This document shows, one piece after another, positions 9,763 through 17,040 of a DNA stretch of 64,000 bases. Origin of the DNA: a virus (taxonomy: Duplodnaviria; Heunggongvirae; Uroviricota; Caudoviricetes); the IMG/VR virus record IMGVR_UViG_3300021979_000001, positions 162,948 through 226,947 of that record; one strand, written 5' to 3'. A program made the translations under genes and the position numbers. The stretch's first letter is position 1, and each line of letters starts with the position of its first letter. The notes beneath the pieces were generated by a model that worked only from the letters and a program-made list of their open reading frames with translations, did no database searches and had not been told where the DNA came from.

Positions 9763-10971
9763 TTATTTGTAGTCTTCCCAATTAATATTACCAAAAACAG
9801 AGCGCATATTATCTATGTGCGTGCTGTTATTTTGTTGACCGATTTTCCAAAAAGCAAGATCAATGATATTACCCCCATCGTATTCACACCAGAACATTCC
9901 GCCCAACAAGTTGTTGATTTTGCGTAATTCTTTCAATTCCGGCATTGCTGCAACTGATTTCCGGTCACCTGGATGACGTTCTTTAGCTACCTGGACAGCA
10001 TCACGAACCCGTTTAACGGATTTGCCAATTTCCGCATAAAAATCTGTTTCAAATGCTTCCACTTTCTGGCGAACACCATCAACGAACAGGGGACGAGCAT
10101 CATCCATATTGCCATGCACAATCAATCGAACTATGTTTTTTTCATTATTGATGATGTCGTATGATGACGACAACTCACAATACCATTCCGATTTCATTTT
10201 GATCATGTGTCCATCATCAAAACGAATGACAATCCCTTCTTCATCGCGGGCAGTCTTAATGACATTAATCAATTTGTTAATATCAGTCACCCGATGTGAT
10301 ACTGCTTTGATTAGAGGGATACTCGGGTAACGAGAGATTAGTGTTTGCATGTCATCATAAGACCAATACTTGCCGCTTTCTAGTTCGCGAACCGCAGTCA
10401 AAACTAATTTGTCTTCGCCATACGCAAGAACAATTCTGTTGAACGGGGAACACCATTCAAAAATTGGCATTGCACCTTGTTTTTGTAATTCTGCCACAAA
10501 TTCGTCATAGATCGGGTGTTTTTCAACAAATTTGCTCGCCTGGTTGCTCACATCACTAATACCGCGTTTGGTTGACCACACGATACCCGTATCCAAATAC
10601 AATGGTGACACCATACTACCGTCAATTTTTTCCAAGACAATATGCGGCTTGGTGAAATCAATCGTATCTGATTTAGTTTCTGATTTCTCATTGAGATTAA
10701 AAAACTTGTGGTATCTACGACCAACCAATTTCCCGTTGGGATCAAATATCAGACCACGACATTCCCGCAAAATAGCGTAGTTTCGATCTAATTCCGGGTC
10801 ACCCGTCGTCGGCGATGGAAATGATTCATCGCACACAAAATTATAGCTAGAAACAATGTAATCTCCTTTATTATATATCGAGAAACATGGAGATTGTAGC
10901 GTTTTGTTAACCGCATCGATTGCAGTTTGCACATCTTCCAGGGTTAAATTGGTAGGAAAATCATAATTCAT
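9763..10971 (-). CDS. rnlA: T4 Rnl1-family RNA ligase
   Basis: RECRGLIF, YHKFFNLNE, motif I EKIDGS, FEW, EGIVI, KMK. Confidence 0.92.
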   Translation of the reverse strand: MNYDFPTNLTLEDVQTAIDAVNKTLQSPCFSIYNKGDYIVSSYNFVCDESFPSPTTGDPELDRNYAILRECRGLIFDPNGKLVGRRYHKFFNLNEKSETKSDTIDFTKPHIVLEKIDGSMVSPLYLDTGIVWSTKRGISDVSNQASKFVEKHPIYDEFVAELQKQGAMPIFEWCSPFNRIVLAYGEDKLVLTAVRELESGKYWSYDDMQTLISRYPSIPLIKAVSHRVTDINKLINVIKTARDEEGIVIRFDDGHMIKMKSEWYCELSSSYDIINNEKNIVRLIVHGNMDDARPLFVDGVRQKVEAFETDFYAEIGKSVKRVRDAVQVAKERHPGDRKSVAAMPELKELRKINNLLGGMFWCEYDGGNIIDLAFWKIGQQNNSTHIDNMRSVFGNINWEDYK

Positions 10972-11131
10972 TTTTCACAATAACCTTACACGTTTATGTA
11001 TCTATGTTATCAATACCATAGTTTTTTTTAAAAAAACAATATATTATTGTTAACTAAAATTTATTGTGATCCCTCGCTATATCATGATATATTTTAGCCA
11101 TACCCCTTTCACAATAGGACATAATATCACC

Positions 11132-11971
11132 ATGGCACCGGATTATTTAGATATAGATTATTTGCGTAGTTTGGATGTTGCCCCGGAGTCATTTGGGCTT
11201 GGGTTTATCCAACTGAAATTATCCAAAACGAGCAAAGTCAATTTTTGGGATGTCGCATCCCTTCTAACCGTGGACCAAGAAGATTTTCATACACATCCGT
11301 ATGATTTCACATCCACTATAATTGCGGGGTCCATAACCCACGAAACTGCAATCGTTACCAACGAAACCACGATTACCAATGAAAACAGCAAGCAACCATA
11401 TGGTTATTTACAATTCAAAACCGGATGTTGCCCTGGTAGTAAAGCAATCCTTGATGCAAATATTGATTTGTTATCATTGGGGAAAACAACACTGTCCGTT
11501 GGTTCAAAATATGACTTTCACCATACCATGTATCATCGTGTTCTAAAGGCATATGGTATCACCCATGTGACTAAAGGGAAAAAAGTAGAAGAATATGCCA
11601 AGATTGCAATTAAAACCGAAACCAAATTAAGCAACGCATTTGCAAACCAGTTGACAACAAAAGAATGCTGGGAACGAATTGAACAGATTATTTCACCATT
11701 TTTACCGGCAGAGTTTGAAACCCATCCAGGGTATCATCTAACCAAGATTGCTAAAGGACAGATTGGTGATGTATCAAAAATCGTGGAAGAATGTAATGAA
11801 TTGGTAGATGCCGCCGCGCAAGGTGCAAACATAATGATTTTGCATGAACTGTCCGATATTCATGGTGCAATGGAACTATATTTAAATAAACATCACCCAT
11901 CCTTATCAATCACTGATTTGGGTGTTATGTCTACCATCACCCAACGCGCTTTCACAAATGGGAGACGATAA
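11132..11971 (+). CDS. cupin-like domain fused to a HisE/MazG-like NTP pyrophosphohydrolase domain
   Basis: N-terminal FGLGFIQ..FHTHPYDF.S..I.G..E..YHRV (HxH..H). C-terminal SKIVEECNELVDA..ELSD (EExxE..ExxD). Confidence 0.7.
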   Translation: MAPDYLDIDYLRSLDVAPESFGLGFIQLKLSKTSKVNFWDVASLLTVDQEDFHTHPYDFTSTIIAGSITHETAIVTNETTITNENSKQPYGYLQFKTGCCPGSKAILDANIDLLSLGKTTLSVGSKYDFHHTMYHRVLKAYGITHVTKGKKVEEYAKIAIKTETKLSNAFANQLTTKECWERIEQIISPFLPAEFETHPGYHLTKIAKGQIGDVSKIVEECNELVDAAAQGANIMILHELSDIHGAMELYLNKHHPSLSITDLGVMSTITQRAFTNGRR

Positions 11972-12576
11972 TGAATATCAAATCATTATCACGCATTGTC
12001 GAGACAGCTACCTTTTTTCGTAACCTAAATTATGTCGAAATTGAATTGCCTTGGACCGCATCAAAGGCGGCAATGGAAACGACGATTGATCTGACACATG
12101 TCATGTCGTTATCATGCAACGGGGCTGATTATGGATTATTGGTTGGGTCTGCCGAACAGGCTTTTATCCAAAAGATGATTGATGGTGAATTATCGCCTGG
12201 GAAATATCAATCATTCACCCCCTGTTTCCGTCCTGATCCGGTGGATGAATTGCATCAGACTTATTTTACTAAGTTGGAATTGTGTGAACTTGTTTCACAT
12301 AAGACCGATATGGACGAATGCCAACATCGATTGGATTATATTACCCGGTGTTGTCGGGGAAATTTCACACGATTGGTGCGCGATGATGGTTTTGATGATC
12401 CGAATGTTGTTCACATCGTCAAAACACACGCTGGGTATGACATCGAAATCAACAATATTGAGATCGGTTCATATGGGATTCGCCAATTTGGCAAATTTAC
12501 ATGGATTTATGCTACTGGGATAGCTGAACCCCGTTTTGGCAAAGCGGTTTCCCAACTCCAATATATACCGGCTTGA
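11971..12576 (+). CDS. minimal class II aminoacyl-tRNA-synthetase-like catalytic domain
   Basis: GSAEQ; motif 2 TPCFR..DELH..YF.KLE; IEIGSYG; motif 3 GIAEPRF; no anticodon-binding domain; TAATG overlap with the upstream gene. Confidence 0.8.
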   Translation: MNIKSLSRIVETATFFRNLNYVEIELPWTASKAAMETTIDLTHVMSLSCNGADYGLLVGSAEQAFIQKMIDGELSPGKYQSFTPCFRPDPVDELHQTYFTKLELCELVSHKTDMDECQHRLDYITRCCRGNFTRLVRDDGFDDPNVVHIVKTHAGYDIEINNIEIGSYGIRQFGKFTWIYATGIAEPRFGKAVSQLQYIPA

Positions 12577-12841
12577 TATATTGGGTATCTGTATTCAAGT
12601 AAAATTCGCTTAGCATGAACAGCACATCATCAACCTGGCTACCAGTGATGACATGAATTTCATACTTGGAATACTCGATTACCCAATTATTTGACCGCAT
12701 GTTTTCGGCACACCAACATTCCAGCCATCTTGCCATAACCATCGAATTAACCGCACTTATCCCCGCGCCCATATGATCATAGACGTATATGATGCCAGTT
12801 CGCGATCTGGTGTGGTGTTTATCGTAAATGAGTTTGCCCAT
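12512..12841 (-). CDS. hypothetical protein, C-terminal-motif paralogue family
   Basis: WLECWC..W..DDVLFMLSEF. Confidence 0.6.
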   Translation of the reverse strand: MGKLIYDKHHTRSRTGIIYVYDHMGAGISAVNSMVMARWLECWCAENMRSNNWVIEYSKYEIHVITGSQVDDVLFMLSEFYLNTDTQYIKPVYIGVGKPLCQNGVQLSQ

Positions 12842-13015: not shown

Positions 13016-13294
13016 TTATCCACTCCTGGTGATATTTCCCATATTTGAGACATCACCATGAATGTCACCGCATTCAAGATTACCACGATTTGAGACATCA
13101 CCATGAATGTCACCACATTCAAGGTTACCGGAATTATTGATGTTATCAATAGTCCCGTCAACAACAACGATTTTAGTTGTATCGCTGGATAACGATATGG
13201 TCTGCGTTCCAACGATTATCGAGTCGATAGTGATGGCGAAGTTATCGCCATCACTAAGATTATATTCAGTTCCATTGATCCGAATCGTTGTCAT
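13016..13294 (-). CDS. small beta-helix-like repeat protein
   Basis: Repeated GNLECGDIHGDVSN units. Confidence 0.7.
   Translation of the reverse strand: MTTIRINGTEYNLSDGDNFAITIDSIIVGTQTISLSSDTTKIVVVDGTIDNINNSGNLECGDIHGDVSNRGNLECGDIHGDVSNMGNITRSG
13043..13129. repeat. 45-bp in-frame tandem duplication
   Basis: atttgagacatcaccatgaatgtcacc(g/a)cattcaag occurs at 13043 and 13088. Confidence 0.9.
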
Positions 13295-13297
13295 AGT

Positions 13298-13882
13298 TTA
13301 CAATTCACTACGACTGGAAACAACTTTGTCAATGATGCCATATTCCAACGCATCATGTGCGGACAAGAATTTATCTCGTTCCATGTCGTTCAATACCGTT
13401 TCATAATCTTTGCCGGTATTTTCAGCCATCATCGTTGTGAGGCGATGTTTCAGACGTTCCCCTTCTTTCAGGGAAATAAACTGATCAGTGATTTTGCCTT
13501 GGGTGCCGGATGACGGTTGATGAATCATTACGGTCGAGTCGAGAAGCGCGATACGATGCCCTTTGGTCCCGCAAGATAGGAACATCGCCCCCATGGACAT
13601 CGCCGAACCGGTAACCACCGTAACAATCGTGTTCTTGACAAATCGCATGGTATTGATCACGGCCAAACCATCATAAACCGATCCACCCGGCGAGTTAATA
13701 TACATATAAATTGGTTTTTCCGGGTCTTCGGCTTCAAGATGCAATAATGATGCCGTAATAACGGATGCCATCCGCGTTTCAACTACACCATCAACAAAAA
13801 TGATGTTTTCTTTCAGAAGCCGCGAATAGATGTCATATGACCGTTCGTTATGACCATCATTGGTAACTACTATTGGAATCAT
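13298..13882 (-). CDS. clpP: ATP-dependent Clp protease proteolytic subunit
   Basis: DIYSRLLKENIIF, YINSPGG; catalytic triad in AMSMG, MIHQP, ERDKF. Confidence 0.97.
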   Translation of the reverse strand: MIPIVVTNDGHNERSYDIYSRLLKENIIFVDGVVETRMASVITASLLHLEAEDPEKPIYMYINSPGGSVYDGLAVINTMRFVKNTIVTVVTGSAMSMGAMFLSCGTKGHRIALLDSTVMIHQPSSGTQGKITDQFISLKEGERLKHRLTTMMAENTGKDYETVLNDMERDKFLSAHDALEYGIIDKVVSSRSEL

Positions 13883-13895
13883 TACAATATTTTCC

Positions 13896-14159
13896 TTAAA
13901 CTGACAGTTTGACCATCACACTGTCTTCATACAATTCAAATCCAACCAATAACTCTCCACCACCCCCACCCCCGATTACATCCAAATATGTCCATCTACC
14001 AACACCAGACTGATACATGATTTCATTGATACGGGCACAACCATATGGGGATTTGGGATCAATTGATACAATGTGCCAACCAGTAGGTATCATTTGTCGA
14101 TTGAGTGTCAAATAATTTGGTGAAAGAGAATACACCAAATTTTTTAATTTCACATCCAT
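13896..14159 (-). CDS. hypothetical protein, C-terminal-motif paralogue family
   Basis: Ends GFELYEDSVMVKLSV. Confidence 0.6.
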   Translation of the reverse strand: MDVKLKNLVYSLSPNYLTLNRQMIPTGWHIVSIDPKSPYGCARINEIMYQSGVGRWTYLDVIGGGGGGELLVGFELYEDSVMVKLSV

Positions 14160-14219
14160 ATCATTTACCTAATCAGGGCAAAATCAGGGGAGAATTTATT
14201 TATATTCTCCCCTGATGGA

Positions 14220-15473
14220 TTATTTCCGGTGATCTTCGTATACCGCCGTTACCCCAAATGGAGACTGCGGGGCATTTTCCCCATACACGACAAATAACGT
14301 TTCGCAATAATCTGGGTCGCCCCAACCAGAACAAGGGTATCCGTCGGTAAAGAAAATCAACCGTTCCGGGCGAATTTCCTTTTCCTTCATGAACGCCCAG
14401 TTAACATTAAAATCGGTGCCACCGCCCCCTTGCATTTTGTAATCCACAATTTCTGACAAATTGGTTTCATCGTATTCTGTGAAACCATATACTTTCGTAT
14501 CAAAGGTCCACAATTTTACTTTTGCCTGTGAAAAGGTTTCCAGAATCCCTTTCGTTTCCGTCAAGAAATCGGTCAACATTTCCTGGGTCATTGATCCGCT
14601 TGTATCAATCGTGATACAAACATCAATCGTATTTTGGAAATTTTGCGCTGGCAACCGAACACCCGGCAACGCCCAATTCCGACGACTGAAACGGGTATAG
14701 GTATAATCGTCTTTTACTGCGGACCGAAAGGTCTGCTCCAACATGGTCCGCCAGTCAAGTTGCGCGTCACCCAACTCGTCAATCATCCGTGCAACGCCAA
14801 GCGGATAATCACCCGCCTTGCTACTTGCAATTGCTTGCATCGTTGCGGCCCGCATATCATTGCGAATTTCCGCAATTTCATCCGCCGACAATTTTGGCGG
14901 ACCATTTTCTCCGATGACAGTGATGGTTCCGTTGTTGGTCCCATCTTTATTACTGTCACCGTTATTGCCACCGTCTCCGGCCCCAAAATCGTGGTGTTCA
15001 TCCATTTCATCTTCGGGCCGAATAGTAACCGAATTTTGGATCAGAAGATCATAAATGGCTTCTGCACCCAATTCATCGGTATAGCGTTCGTCATACAGTG
15101 CCCCTTTGGGCATGACGCCAACACATCCTTTTTTTAAGGATTTCAATGCGGAATTGACCACATAATCGGTTGCCATGGCCCAAATTTTTGGATCACGTGA
15201 CCCACGCCGGTTGGCGTGATCATAAACCAGGTGCATTGTAATATGTGAAATTAAAAAAGAAACCCCACCCAGGCCATATTTTTCAACGGTTTTAATAATA
15301 AAATCACGGTTATAAAATAGCCGCCGCCCGTCTGATGTTATTGTTTTGCACCATTTCGATGCATCAACCTCGGTGAGCCGAATACTTAACTGCCCCAAGA
15401 ACGGATAATCGAATAGCATTTGAACTCGTGATGTAACAATTGCCCGGATTACAGGATCATCTTTTTCCATCAT
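14220..15473 (-). CDS. DUF2201-like metallopeptidase plus VWA protein (MoxR partner)
   Basis: TSDGRRLFYN, HITMH..DH, MIDAS motif DTSGS, GGGGTDF, FTDG. Confidence 0.9.
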   Translation of the reverse strand: MMEKDDPVIRAIVTSRVQMLFDYPFLGQLSIRLTEVDASKWCKTITSDGRRLFYNRDFIIKTVEKYGLGGVSFLISHITMHLVYDHANRRGSRDPKIWAMATDYVVNSALKSLKKGCVGVMPKGALYDERYTDELGAEAIYDLLIQNSVTIRPEDEMDEHHDFGAGDGGNNGDSNKDGTNNGTITVIGENGPPKLSADEIAEIRNDMRAATMQAIASSKAGDYPLGVARMIDELGDAQLDWRTMLEQTFRSAVKDDYTYTRFSRRNWALPGVRLPAQNFQNTIDVCITIDTSGSMTQEMLTDFLTETKGILETFSQAKVKLWTFDTKVYGFTEYDETNLSEIVDYKMQGGGGTDFNVNWAFMKEKEIRPERLIFFTDGYPCSGWGDPDYCETLFVVYGENAPQSPFGVTAVYEDHRK

Positions 15474-15543
15474 AATTTAATCCTCGTATATTCAAAAAAT
15501 GAGCGACAATAATTATCTTAATTGTCGCTCATTCACATGTCAA

Positions 15544-17040
15544 TTATTTACTTGTGCCGCCCATCAAAGGACCATATTTCGCCGCAAAATTGGCGAAATA
15601 TTTTGATTTTGCAGAGAACGGAAGCTGGTATTGACCCACGGCCATTTTGATAGCCAAGATGCATACTTCGGTTTTGAAGTTTTCCATCGAAAATTTCACA
15701 TAGTTATCGGCATATTTATGCCATTTTTGGCCCTGCTCGGTATTATTGAAAACCGAGACGGACGCATTGTTGTGGAATGCTTCCTGCCGCAATTGATCAG
15801 CACGTTCTTTGAGCATTTGCGACATGGCCGTGATCAGTGCAAATGACATTTGCGGATCAAGCTGTTCGCTCGCCTTGGTAATTGTCCCATCCAAGATTCC
15901 AGCAGGACTTGGCATTGCATCCAGCCGTTTGTAAAATGAACAGAACTTTTGTCCGTCAATGTCTCCGATAGCCCCATTCACGCTGGCATGGAACACATCT
16001 GTTCCAACGCGAACCCCGCGTTTTTCGTTGTGTTCCTTTGCTTTCAGCAAGTCGGACACAAACATCCACGTCCGGGGGGCGGAAAAACCCCGAACCGATT
16101 TAACCATATCATCTTGGCTGGAACTCAACTGCCCCTGAAAATGTGTCAGATACCCGATGACCGCCGGATGATACATCGCGTCAATGGCATGGGTTTGCCA
16201 GTCTTCGAAATTCGCGACCATTTCGACATGCACCAAGCGGCTACGCACCGGTGAAGGCAAAACAAATGTGATACCACGGTCGCCTTCCCGATTGCCGCAT
16301 GCGACAATCTGAAAATCATCGGGCAACTCATACTCGCCCAAACGACGGTCAAGCAACAATTCATAACATGCCGCAATCACTGATTGCGGGGCCGAATTTA
16401 ATTCTTCAAGCCCGAGAATGCCACGGGCTTTGCCGGAAACATTGACGCGAAGGTTGCCAGGTTCAAGATATTCGAACAGCAAGTCCGACAAGTCGTCGAT
16501 TGACAACGATTTGTTTTGCGCAATGATCCCCATTGCCGTGGCGTGGTTATGTTCTGTCGTCAAGCATACATCGACGTAATCGACGCCTTTGCTAACCAAA
16601 ATCGGCACGGTCCCGGCAGTCAGTTTGCGCAAATTGACATCGGTCTTTTGCACATATGGAATGTGATTTGCGCCCAACGGGTTCAAAAATTCAACCCGGA
16701 CAATTTCCTTGTGGTTAATTTCGGCCACGTGGTTGAAGTTAAGGTCGCGTGGTAGCGTCACCGGCGACGACCACGACAATGCGTTAATTCCGCCCCGCTC
16801 GTAAGGCATCGGAATACCACGCAAATCAGATGGGTCCATCTGGGAAAGGCGCATATCGATAAATGCCATATTTTCTTCGGTCGCAAATTGTTTGCAAACA
16901 GCGGACTTCCCGATGCCGGGCGCGCCCCAGATAAACATACTGACCTTTCCCGAGCCAGTCAGTCCCGTCGAGTTCAACAACCGCAATGCAGGCACCATCG
17001 TTGATGGTGTCAATGTTAAAACTTGTGTTTCTTTTGCCAT
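15544..17040 (-). CDS. MoxR-like AAA+ ATPase with a ~100-aa insertion
   Basis: Walker A GAPGIGKS, DMRLSQMDPSDLRGIP, LEELNSA, CGNR, SR, APRTW. Confidence 0.92.
   Translation of the reverse strand: MAKETQVLTLTPSTMVPALRLLNSTGLTGSGKVSMFIWGAPGIGKSAVCKQFATEENMAFIDMRLSQMDPSDLRGIPMPYERGGINALSWSSPVTLPRDLNFNHVAEINHKEIVRVEFLNPLGANHIPYVQKTDVNLRKLTAGTVPILVSKGVDYVDVCLTTEHNHATAMGIIAQNKSLSIDDLSDLLFEYLEPGNLRVNVSGKARGILGLEELNSAPQSVIAACYELLLDRRLGEYELPDDFQIVACGNREGDRGITFVLPSPVRSRLVHVEMVANFEDWQTHAIDAMYHPAVIGYLTHFQGQLSSSQDDMVKSVRGFSAPRTWMFVSDLLKAKEHNEKRGVRVGTDVFHASVNGAIGDIDGQKFCSFYKRLDAMPSPAGILDGTITKASEQLDPQMSFALITAMSQMLKERADQLRQEAFHNNASVSVFNNTEQGQKWHKYADNYVKFSMENFKTEVCILAIKMAVGQYQLPFSAKSKYFANFAAKYGPLMGGTSK

Follow-up and report, generated by a model that had tools for sequence, protein, structure and literature searches.

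We analyzed a stretch of viral DNA of 64,000 nucleotides, referred to as the window in the following, which corresponds to bases 162948-226947 of an IMG/VR virus record (457,165 bp, rated complete by CheckV). Within it lie two overlapping genes, which together form the module described here. Gene 1 encodes a predicted cupin joined to a HisE/MazG-like pyrophosphohydrolase domain, and gene 2 a very small relative of seryl-tRNA synthetase (SerRS), an aminoacyl-tRNA synthetase (aaRS) of class II. We use the term 'pair' for the HisE-like and the aaRS-like gene, which are inherited as one unit, with the cupin as an optional third member. In window coordinates, the features of the module are as follows:

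11116..11119, plus strand: AGGA, a possible ribosome-binding site of gene 1, 12 nt ahead of its ATG (read from the sequence)
11132..11971, plus strand: gene 1, 279 aa, cupin fused to a HisE/MazG-like pyrophosphohydrolase (open reading frame, ORF; start by homolog alignment)
11132..11640, plus strand: predicted cupin domain, residues about 1-170, with HxH at 53/55, H135 and an invariant C99 (VIA, PHROG, alignment)
11717..11968, plus strand: HisE/MazG-like all-alpha nucleoside triphosphate (NTP) pyrophosphohydrolase domain, residues 196-279 (phrog_6408, PF01503, metal ligands)
11960..11973, plus strand: GGGAG ribosome-binding site inside the end of gene 1, followed by a TAATG stop/start overlap (read from the sequence)
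11971..12576, plus strand: gene 2, 201 aa, minimal class IIa (SerRS-type) aaRS catalytic core (ORF, PHROG, AF2, hhalign)

These are the sole plus-strand genes amid a run of minus-strand genes. They are not chance ORFs, since both proteins have many full-length homologs; for protein 1, these number 16, with 34-40% identity. We place the start of gene 1 at ATG 11132, where the homologs begin, and disfavor the upstream GTG at 11066, which is the start in the database entry. A preliminary description of this DNA, made from the sequence by eye, had pointed to a TAATG overlap of the two genes. It is indeed present: the stop codon of gene 1 (TAA, 11969-11971) and the start codon of gene 2 (ATG, 11971-11973) have one base in common, and GGGAG lies 6 nt upstream of the latter. 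A promoter scan marked a promoter-like site at 11064-11093, and such sites are no commoner here than in shuffled sequences.

The pair is inherited as a unit

To survey the gene neighborhoods, we assembled 83 viral loci, 80 of them fetched by the aaRS-like gene and three from the annotated phages CcrPW, PcCB7V and Lazarus. A HisE-like gene is found on the same strand and at most 2.3 kb from the aaRS-like gene in all 83. The two domain hits are separated by a median of 11 nt, and either gene may come first. The two are even encoded in a single ORF in at least 13 loci (L032, L084 and 11 loci from the candidate phyla radiation (CPR) or DPANN), as well as in 9 of 162 family representatives. From the assemblies of 185,579 prokaryote species, a mere 26 aaRS-like loci were obtained, mostly from metagenome-assembled genomes and two from rhizobial isolates. 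Of these loci, 25 are complete, and 22 of the 25 have the HisE-like gene. Taking viral loci and assemblies together, the two genes are neighbors in 105 of 108 loci. Searches of phage records with tblastn tell the same story, with 276 records for the aaRS-like and 265 for the HisE-like protein and the same genus profile for both (112 Escherichia, about 60 Acinetobacter and 13 Caulobacter records, among others); a nucleotide search of phage records with the module gave no match. Thus, the pair is inherited as one unit, and it very probably also works as one. This survey had been set in advance as a test of the preliminary description, which had expected the genes to co-occur: with few exceptions, the HisE-like gene lies beside the aaRS-like gene or is fused to it, and the cupin co-occurs with them at the level of whole genomes.

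The carriers belong to very different phage groups, namely T4-like Acinetobacter phages, rV5/phi92-like phages, phiCbK-like phages and jumbo phages. In an exhaustive profile search (E <= 1e-10), the aaRS-like family comprised 1,481 clusters at 50% identity, nearly all of them viral or from CPR/DPANN, and the Atlas clusters are 88-100% viral. Besides the HisE-like gene, no neighbor recurs in more than 11 of 84 loci, so that the cassette is self-contained and mobile. The system is not purely viral, since one locus (L097) lies on a 905-kb chromosomal contig of a Woesebacteria member. There, a radical S-adenosylmethionine (SAM) gene and an aaRS-HisE fusion adjoin nrdR and are also flanked by a restriction-modification pair and transporters, and the canonical serS follows 5 kb downstream.

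In the full-text literature, we found no experimental or dedicated comparative study of the pair. Its genes go by the names of seryl- or histidyl-tRNA synthetase and MazG in genome papers and databases, and one genome paper takes the SerRS label at face value (PMC8953757). This annotation deserves correction even if the function proves mundane. The module is a real and widespread enzyme set and a variant among the stand-alone aaRS paralogs; its aaRS-like family is among the smallest class II cores known and very common in large phages, and the 276 cultured-phage records include phi92/rV5-type coliphages, Acinetobacter T4-like phages and Caulobacter giants. What is new from this window is the cupin-HisE fusion, the genome-level tie between cupin and pair, and the parallel between cupin and radical SAM partners, which are described below.

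Protein 2 resembles a SerRS reduced to its active site

Protein 2 matches phrog_4806 (E 2.8e-33), and its AlphaFold2 (AF2) model has a predicted local distance difference test score (pLDDT) of 90. In VIA comparisons, six SerRS entries top the table, led by human mitochondrial SerRS (Z 20.6, 191 aligned residues, root-mean-square deviation 2.8) and followed by five with Z 17.6-18.2; the match spans all 201 residues. HisZ/HisRS (Z 14.8-17.4), PylRS (16.9), the amino acid:carrier-protein ligase Bll0957 (15.8), AsnA (13.8) and EpmA (13.4) score lower. An hhalign comparison of the protein 2 family with bacterial SerRS gave a probability of 96% (E 1.5e-9) and maps the active site. Motif 1 is located at P26. 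The sequence S-A-E62 corresponds to the TAE motif of SerRS, TPCFR87xE to TPCFRSE (motif 2), and F99, K101 and E103 to the F, K and E of the second motif 2 strand; D157 and E164/S167 correspond to the metal-binding residues, and R188 to the motif 3 arginine. All of these mapped residues are invariant in the family alignment. Protein 2 thus bears the class II motifs 1-3 together with the ATP and Mg ligands that characterize SerRS. As judged from alignment and model, it comprises the entire class II active site of the SerRS type, without any further part.

With SerRS (PDB 7u2a, 2dq0, 1ser; Z 20.6-17.6), protein 2 shares the fold, motifs 1-3, the alpha-amino site, the adenine-stacking Phe and the Mg-binding Glu and Ser. 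It differs in its trimmed motif 2 loop, in having an NTP pyrophosphatase-type partner and in the absence of the N-terminal coiled-coil tRNA arm: it begins at the motif 1 helix and aligns to residues 235-472 of SerRS only. The preliminary description had read it as a 201-residue protein with class II motifs 2 and 3 and no tRNA-binding domain, which is correct, and motif 1 can be added. The motif 2 loop is 7 residues shorter than in SerRS, and the loop Arg is replaced by His95. Two columns would, if we may presume the same roles as in the Thermus thermophilus SerRS structures, hold the ligands of the serine hydroxyl: the Glu of the KxE strand is kept (E103), and the Thr of HTLNGSG aligns with W178. 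Given the shortened loop, the change from Arg to His and that from Thr to Trp, the amino acid used need not be serine.

Among NCBIfam models, serS (TIGR00414) gave no match at E <= 1, and the best one is genX (TIGR00462), with 23.8 bits against a cut-off of 286.9; Pfam tRNA-synt_2 reaches 22.2 bits against a cut-off of 25. Isoelectric points do not discriminate between the small cores (median 5.2) and canonical SerRS (5.4-5.7). An identity with EpmA/GenX, which is LysRS-like and of class IIb, was rejected on the basis of this bit score and of a Z of 13.4 compared to 20.6 for SerRS.

Stand-alone relatives of tRNA synthetases have repeatedly shown unexpected chemistry, such as the lysylation of elongation factor P, the synthesis of asparagine and the loading of carrier proteins. 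The comparison with EpmA and AsnA drawn in the preliminary description holds insofar as all are stand-alone cores; in structure, both are further from protein 2 (Z 13.4 and 13.8) than SerRS is. More generally, Bll0957 (3mey), AsnA, EpmA/GenX and HisZ are class II cores without tRNA-binding domains that put amino acids to uses other than tRNA charging, but they score below SerRS and are about 100 or more residues longer than protein 2. Their partners are different as well: a carrier protein for Bll0957, none for AsnA, EpmB/EpmC for EpmA and HisG for HisZ.

The HisE-like domain

In the AF2 model of protein 1 (pLDDT 90), residues about 20-160 form a beta barrel, after which come three long helices (214-275). 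This is in line with the preliminary description, which had proposed a cupin with an HxH..H motif joined to a HisE/MazG-like domain with an EExxE..ExxD motif: model and VIA comparison support the barrel, and both the His and the acidic ligands are invariant.

The helical part matches phrog_6408 (E 7.5e-32). Pfam PRA-PH (PF01503), the HisE family, finds it below its gathering score (E 0.004-0.012, 16.5-18 bits versus 21.3). At E <= 0.1, PRA-PH matches 41 of 57 relatives, and PF03819 matches 9 of 57; one relative reaches 22.0 bits with PRA-PH, and a profile search of the PDB returned the HisE entries 2a7w and 1yvw (E 0.07-0.3). Across the 57 sequences, K21, E24, E25, E28, E44 and D47 are invariant, and these form the EExxE...ExxD metal site. 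With this site and its helical bundle, the domain has the hallmarks of the all-alpha NTP pyrophosphohydrolase superfamily (HisE/MazG/dimeric dUTPase). HisE and MazG, its best Pfam and PDB profile matches, share the helical domain of about 80 residues and the K...EExxE...ExxD pattern. Unlike them, the domain described here falls under the Pfam cut-off, has its own invariant motifs (GYH at the N-terminus and RAFxxGxR at the C-terminus), lacks a histidine-operon context and is fused to many unrelated domains.

Among 119 longer proteins with this domain, there are 17 cupin-HisE fusions, 8 aaRS-HisE fusions, 3 tandem HisE proteins and 91 with other extensions. In four representatives of about 270 residues (P0214, P0237, P0264 and P0271), the partner is a DnaQ-type 3'-5' exonuclease (PF03104, E 4e-11), the sole informative partner in a Pfam search of ten long HisE fusion proteins. 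Another fusion partner is a kinase-like P-loop domain (AAA_28), a relative of which adjoins the pair in Caulobacter phage C2. The HisE-like domain is thus the hub of a toolkit centered on nucleotides or nucleic-acid ends. In a single case (L082:5312-5995), it is joined to a degenerate RF-1/ArfB-type domain (PF00472, E 9e-5, under the cut-off) without the GGQ motif.

Cupin or radical SAM as third partner

The barrel of protein 1 is assigned to the cupins on structural grounds, with Z between 11.5 and 9 to many small cupins over residues 2-161. H53, H55, H135, C99 and the strand FGLGFIQLKL are invariant in the family alignment, so that model and alignment together display the double-stranded beta-helix and the His-rich metal motifs of the cupin superfamily. 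Two PHROG matches were found, phrog_4784 (E 3.8e-6) and phrog_4786 (E 4.2e-6 over 96 residues). The latter is labeled as cysteine dioxygenase (CDO) and is the sole link to the type I enzymes, for Pfam CDO_I gave no match at E <= 1. Of 14 family members searched against Pfam, one matched Cupin_2 (E 0.005), with essentially no match otherwise; the cupin profile had no match among PDB sequences at E <= 10, an ESM Atlas search returned only viral clusters without names, and Foldseek, run with the model of protein 1 as a whole, turned up cupins and JmjC proteins at TM <= 0.28, too weak to be used for function. The C-terminal extension of the HisE protein of Acinetobacter phages showed no link to this cupin family (hhalign probability 0.5%). 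The barrel resembles that of the three-histidine (3-His) cupin enzymes, such as gentisate dioxygenase and the thiol dioxygenases (e.g. CDO, Dke1), in its HxH...H pattern and in having no acidic ligand at the usual position. It differs in that its Z values of just 9-11.5 are equaled by many unrelated small cupins, some of them non-redox.

Searching from the side of the cupin, we found 23 viral loci, and the pair is present in 18 of the 23 records. It is directly next to the cupin in nine, as a cupin-HisE fusion or in the orders HisE-cupin-aaRS and aaRS-cupin-HisE, and the pair lies elsewhere on the record in another nine; five records lack it, three of which are fragments with 17-34% completeness. 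The reverse fusion order, HisE-cupin, was found as well. Among cultured phages, this cupin is confined to 11 Caulobacter phages, and in those we checked, the pair is located about 170 kb from the cupin, embedded in a tRNA array. The cupin is therefore an optional third member of the unit. In a tree of the aaRS-like family, the rows with a cupin are dispersed (8 changes for 9 rows), which argues for repeated association of cupin and pair rather than for one lineage; this tree was built by a quick method, is poorly resolved (53 of 99 forks are open) and can be taken as indicative only.

In six CPR/DPANN loci, the position of the cupin next to the aaRS-HisE fusion is occupied by a radical SAM protein of 221-256 residues, and a member of the same radical SAM family is directly fused to HisE in P0282. 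The nearest NCBIfam models, all far under their cut-offs, are MoaA for three of five proteins and a tungsten-cofactor radical SAM maturase for two of five. Viperin ranks lower than these, and NrdG and QueE are further matches below the cut-off. MoaA and viperin act on nucleoside triphosphates. Such a split, with a cupin in phages and rhizobia and a radical SAM enzyme in CPR/DPANN, would be expected if one and the same step were catalyzed by an O2-dependent enzyme in the former and by an O2-independent one in the latter. The preliminary description had envisaged a pathway of oxygenase, ligase and pyrophosphatase. Its linkage is borne out, and the catalytic residues of ligase and pyrophosphatase are conserved; the oxygenase is a part that we infer from the 3-His site and from the replacement by radical SAM proteins in CPR/DPANN loci. 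The end uses that it had suggested, namely base modification, translation-factor modification or alarmone control, are all hypothetical.

A possible amino acid-nucleotide pathway

We propose that the module is a three-part enzyme set that acts on an amino acid and a nucleotide. The small SerRS-type core would activate an alpha-amino acid with ATP to yield an aminoacyl-adenylate, and the HisE-like domain would cleave pyrophosphate (PPi) from an NTP to yield the monophosphate (NMP); given the conserved residues, it is rather probable that both are active in this way. The 3-His cupin would modify this nucleotide or amino acid in a metal-dependent step, probably an oxidation, and the activated amino acid would be handed to a nucleotide-derived acceptor instead of a tRNA. 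This acceptor is favored because the partner and most fusion partners are nucleotide enzymes, and because the core lacks tRNA-binding elements and has a trimmed motif 2 loop. The overall logic would be that of puromycin-type aminonucleoside pathways, with a redox step on ATP, an NTP pyrophosphatase and amino-acid coupling. The coupling of these three steps in the puromycin, A201A and cystocin pathways (Pur10, Pur7, Pur4, Pur3, Pur6) is a further reason to favor a nucleotide-derived acceptor: Pur10 is an ATP dehydrogenase, Pur7 converts NTP to NMP and PPi, and Pur6 couples the amino acid (PMC11641026). These proteins are not homologous to those of the module, with Pur7 being a Nudix protein, Pur10 NAD-dependent and Pur6 perhaps tRNA-dependent, so that the likeness is one of analogy only. 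An amino acid-nucleotide conjugate as the product is our leading but tentative proposal, which we would sooner expect to fail than to hold.

Several observations weigh against such a product. Most loci consist of the pair alone, without a redox partner, so that an ordinary metabolite would usually have to be the acceptor. None of the truncated aaRS paralogs studied is known to transfer its amino acid to a free nucleotide: the acceptor is ammonia for AsnA, a lysine of a protein for EpmA, and a phosphopantetheine thiol for the amino acid:carrier-protein ligases. An NTP-destroying pyrophosphatase beside an ATP-using ligase has no obvious stoichiometric logic. Moreover, the cupin has no sequence relative of known function, the matches of the radical SAM proteins are mostly to the shared core, and the pair is often found among tRNA or RNA-repair genes, which would fit a role in tRNA metabolism equally well.

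Such a role is the main rival. The core might bind host or phage tRNA at its CCA end and aminoacylate or shield this end, possibly with a helper, while the HisE-like domain removes a blocking pyrophosphate or nucleotide; together, they would form a tRNA repair or protection kit against host tRNA-targeting toxins. The carriers, after all, are large phages rich in tRNA genes, with tRNA genes inside the locus of about 12.5 kb in 26 of 76 viral loci and some modules within tRNA arrays. RNA-related neighbors are also seen: a T4 Rnl1-type ligase here and in four other loci, a CCA-adding enzyme and a peptidyl-tRNA hydrolase (Pth) near the pair in PcCB7V, and in phi92 (L113) a YqeY/GatB-C-like protein, gp195 (9831-10265), directly after the pair gp197 and gp196. 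YqeY was not found in the genome of the source phage. There, about 125-185 kb separate the module from the tRNA array, and the CCA enzyme is about 190 kb away, which speaks against this role, as does the lack of any neighbor other than HisE in more than 11 of the 84 loci. An rV5-type neighborhood, MazG included, has been read as RNA-end repair, with the synthetase-like gene unmentioned (Iyer et al., 2022; PMC9503650). The joining of HisE to a 3'-5' exonuclease, and in one case to an RF-1-like domain without GGQ, points in the same direction, but RNA ends are not among the known substrates of all-alpha NTP pyrophosphohydrolases. The core itself has neither tRNA-binding arm nor anticodon domain, and the motif 2 loop, shortened here, contacts the acceptor stem in SerRS. 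On balance, we consider a tRNA 3'-end function doubtful.

The remaining explanations are less likely. The pair might serve in counter-defense or house-cleaning, destroying or disarming a host nucleotide such as an alarmone, a terminator of the 3'-deoxy-3',4'-didehydro-NTP (ddhNTP) type or a signal of the amino acid-ADP-ribose type, with the aaRS-like core as binding or modifying subunit. This would suit a family nearly confined to viruses and genomes under heavy conflict, a cassette that moves among unrelated genomic settings and a radical SAM partner that resembles viperin and MoaA; HisE and MazG are classic house-cleaning enzymes according to Moroz (2005, as cited in PMC9503650). Yet PADLOC gave no match, no other defense-related match was obtained, the fusion also occurs in the ordinary-looking chromosomal setting of the 905-kb Woesebacteria contig, and the full adenylation machinery is conserved, which a sponge or hydrolase would not need; we deem this explanation improbable. 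Even less probable is DNA base hypermodification, as also considered in the preliminary description, in which the pyrophosphatase would convert a dNTP to the dNMP, and ligase and cupin would add an amino acid before incorporation. It is generally known that phage all-alpha NTP pyrophosphatases (dCTPase, MazZ) feed base-replacement pathways, and the phi92 pair lies beside ribonucleotide reductase genes; still, the phage groups named above as carriers of the pair differ widely in the chemistry of their DNA, cellular CPR chromosomes carry the pair as well, and it has no recurring kinase, transferase or polymerase partner. Finally, protein 2 might be a non-catalytic, HisZ-like regulatory subunit, or an amino acid:carrier-protein ligase with its helical partner of 80 residues as carrier, both of which are disfavored as very unlikely. 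The PHROG label of phrog_4806 is 'histidyl tRNA synthetase', HisZ structures reach Z 14.8-17.4 and Bll0957 Z 15.8, and a SerRS-like core beside a small helical protein is indeed what such ligases look like, but SerRS outscores them all (Z 20.6). The HisZ reading was rejected, as the catalytic Arg, Glu and Ser are invariant in the protein 2 family, unlike in HisZ; no his genes were seen among the conserved neighbors, and HisG itself was not searched for. A carrier-protein ligase of the Mocibob 2010 type was rejected, too: the only motif Ser of the partner (ELSD) varies to Ala or Thr and thus offers no phosphopantetheine site, and the invariant residues of the partner are the MazG/HisE metal ligands instead.

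Returning to the proposed amino acid-nucleotide pathway, one specific version of it, which is improbable as a whole, would make the small SerRS-type core an aminoacyl-nucleotide synthetase. It would charge a free nucleotide that has been trimmed to the monophosphate by the HisE-like domain and, in some lineages, modified by the cupin (with O2) or the radical SAM protein (without O2), and the product might be a mimic of the aminoacyl-tRNA 3' end made by the phage, or an amino acid-tagged nucleotide, that steers host translation or immunity. If true, the aaRS superfamily would thereby gain a novel class of reaction. The near-obligate NTP pyrophosphatase-type partner and the interchangeable cupin and radical SAM proteins make for a testable three-enzyme hypothesis in tractable phages.

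Genomic setting

Two further features lie upstream of the module, the second of them just outside the window and given in coordinates of the source record:

9763..10971, minus strand: T4 Rnl1-type RNA ligase with an Rnl1 C-terminal domain (PF09511, E 4e-31; PF20819, E 4e-7)
G000:C1:160209-160554: transfer-messenger RNA (tmRNA) gene of the source phage, 14 kb upstream of the module

The RNA ligase gene is transcribed divergently from the module; we note it as context only and do not claim that it belongs to the unit. The other Rnl1-like genes mentioned above are located at most 6 kb from the pair (L046, L073/L076 and L083). In total, the source phage (457 kb) carries 20 tRNA genes and one tmRNA. 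A tmRNA is also seen in locus L009, at a distance of 1.3 kb from the pair, and some of the tRNAs near the pair in other loci are odd (L064:10989-11063, L094:650-722 and L007:399-474), their anticodons being CUA (amber suppressor type), called as four bases, or unreadable.

On its other side, the module is faced by minus-strand genes. An ORF of 109 aa (12512-12841) converges on gene 2 and overlaps its final 65 nt. At 13298-17040, a ClpP protease, a DUF2201 metallopeptidase/VWA protein and a 498-aa ORF without Pfam match are encoded in a row. Between them, the 92-aa ORF at 13016-13294 contains a direct repeat of a motif of about 16 residues, in which GNLECGDIHGDVSN occurs twice.

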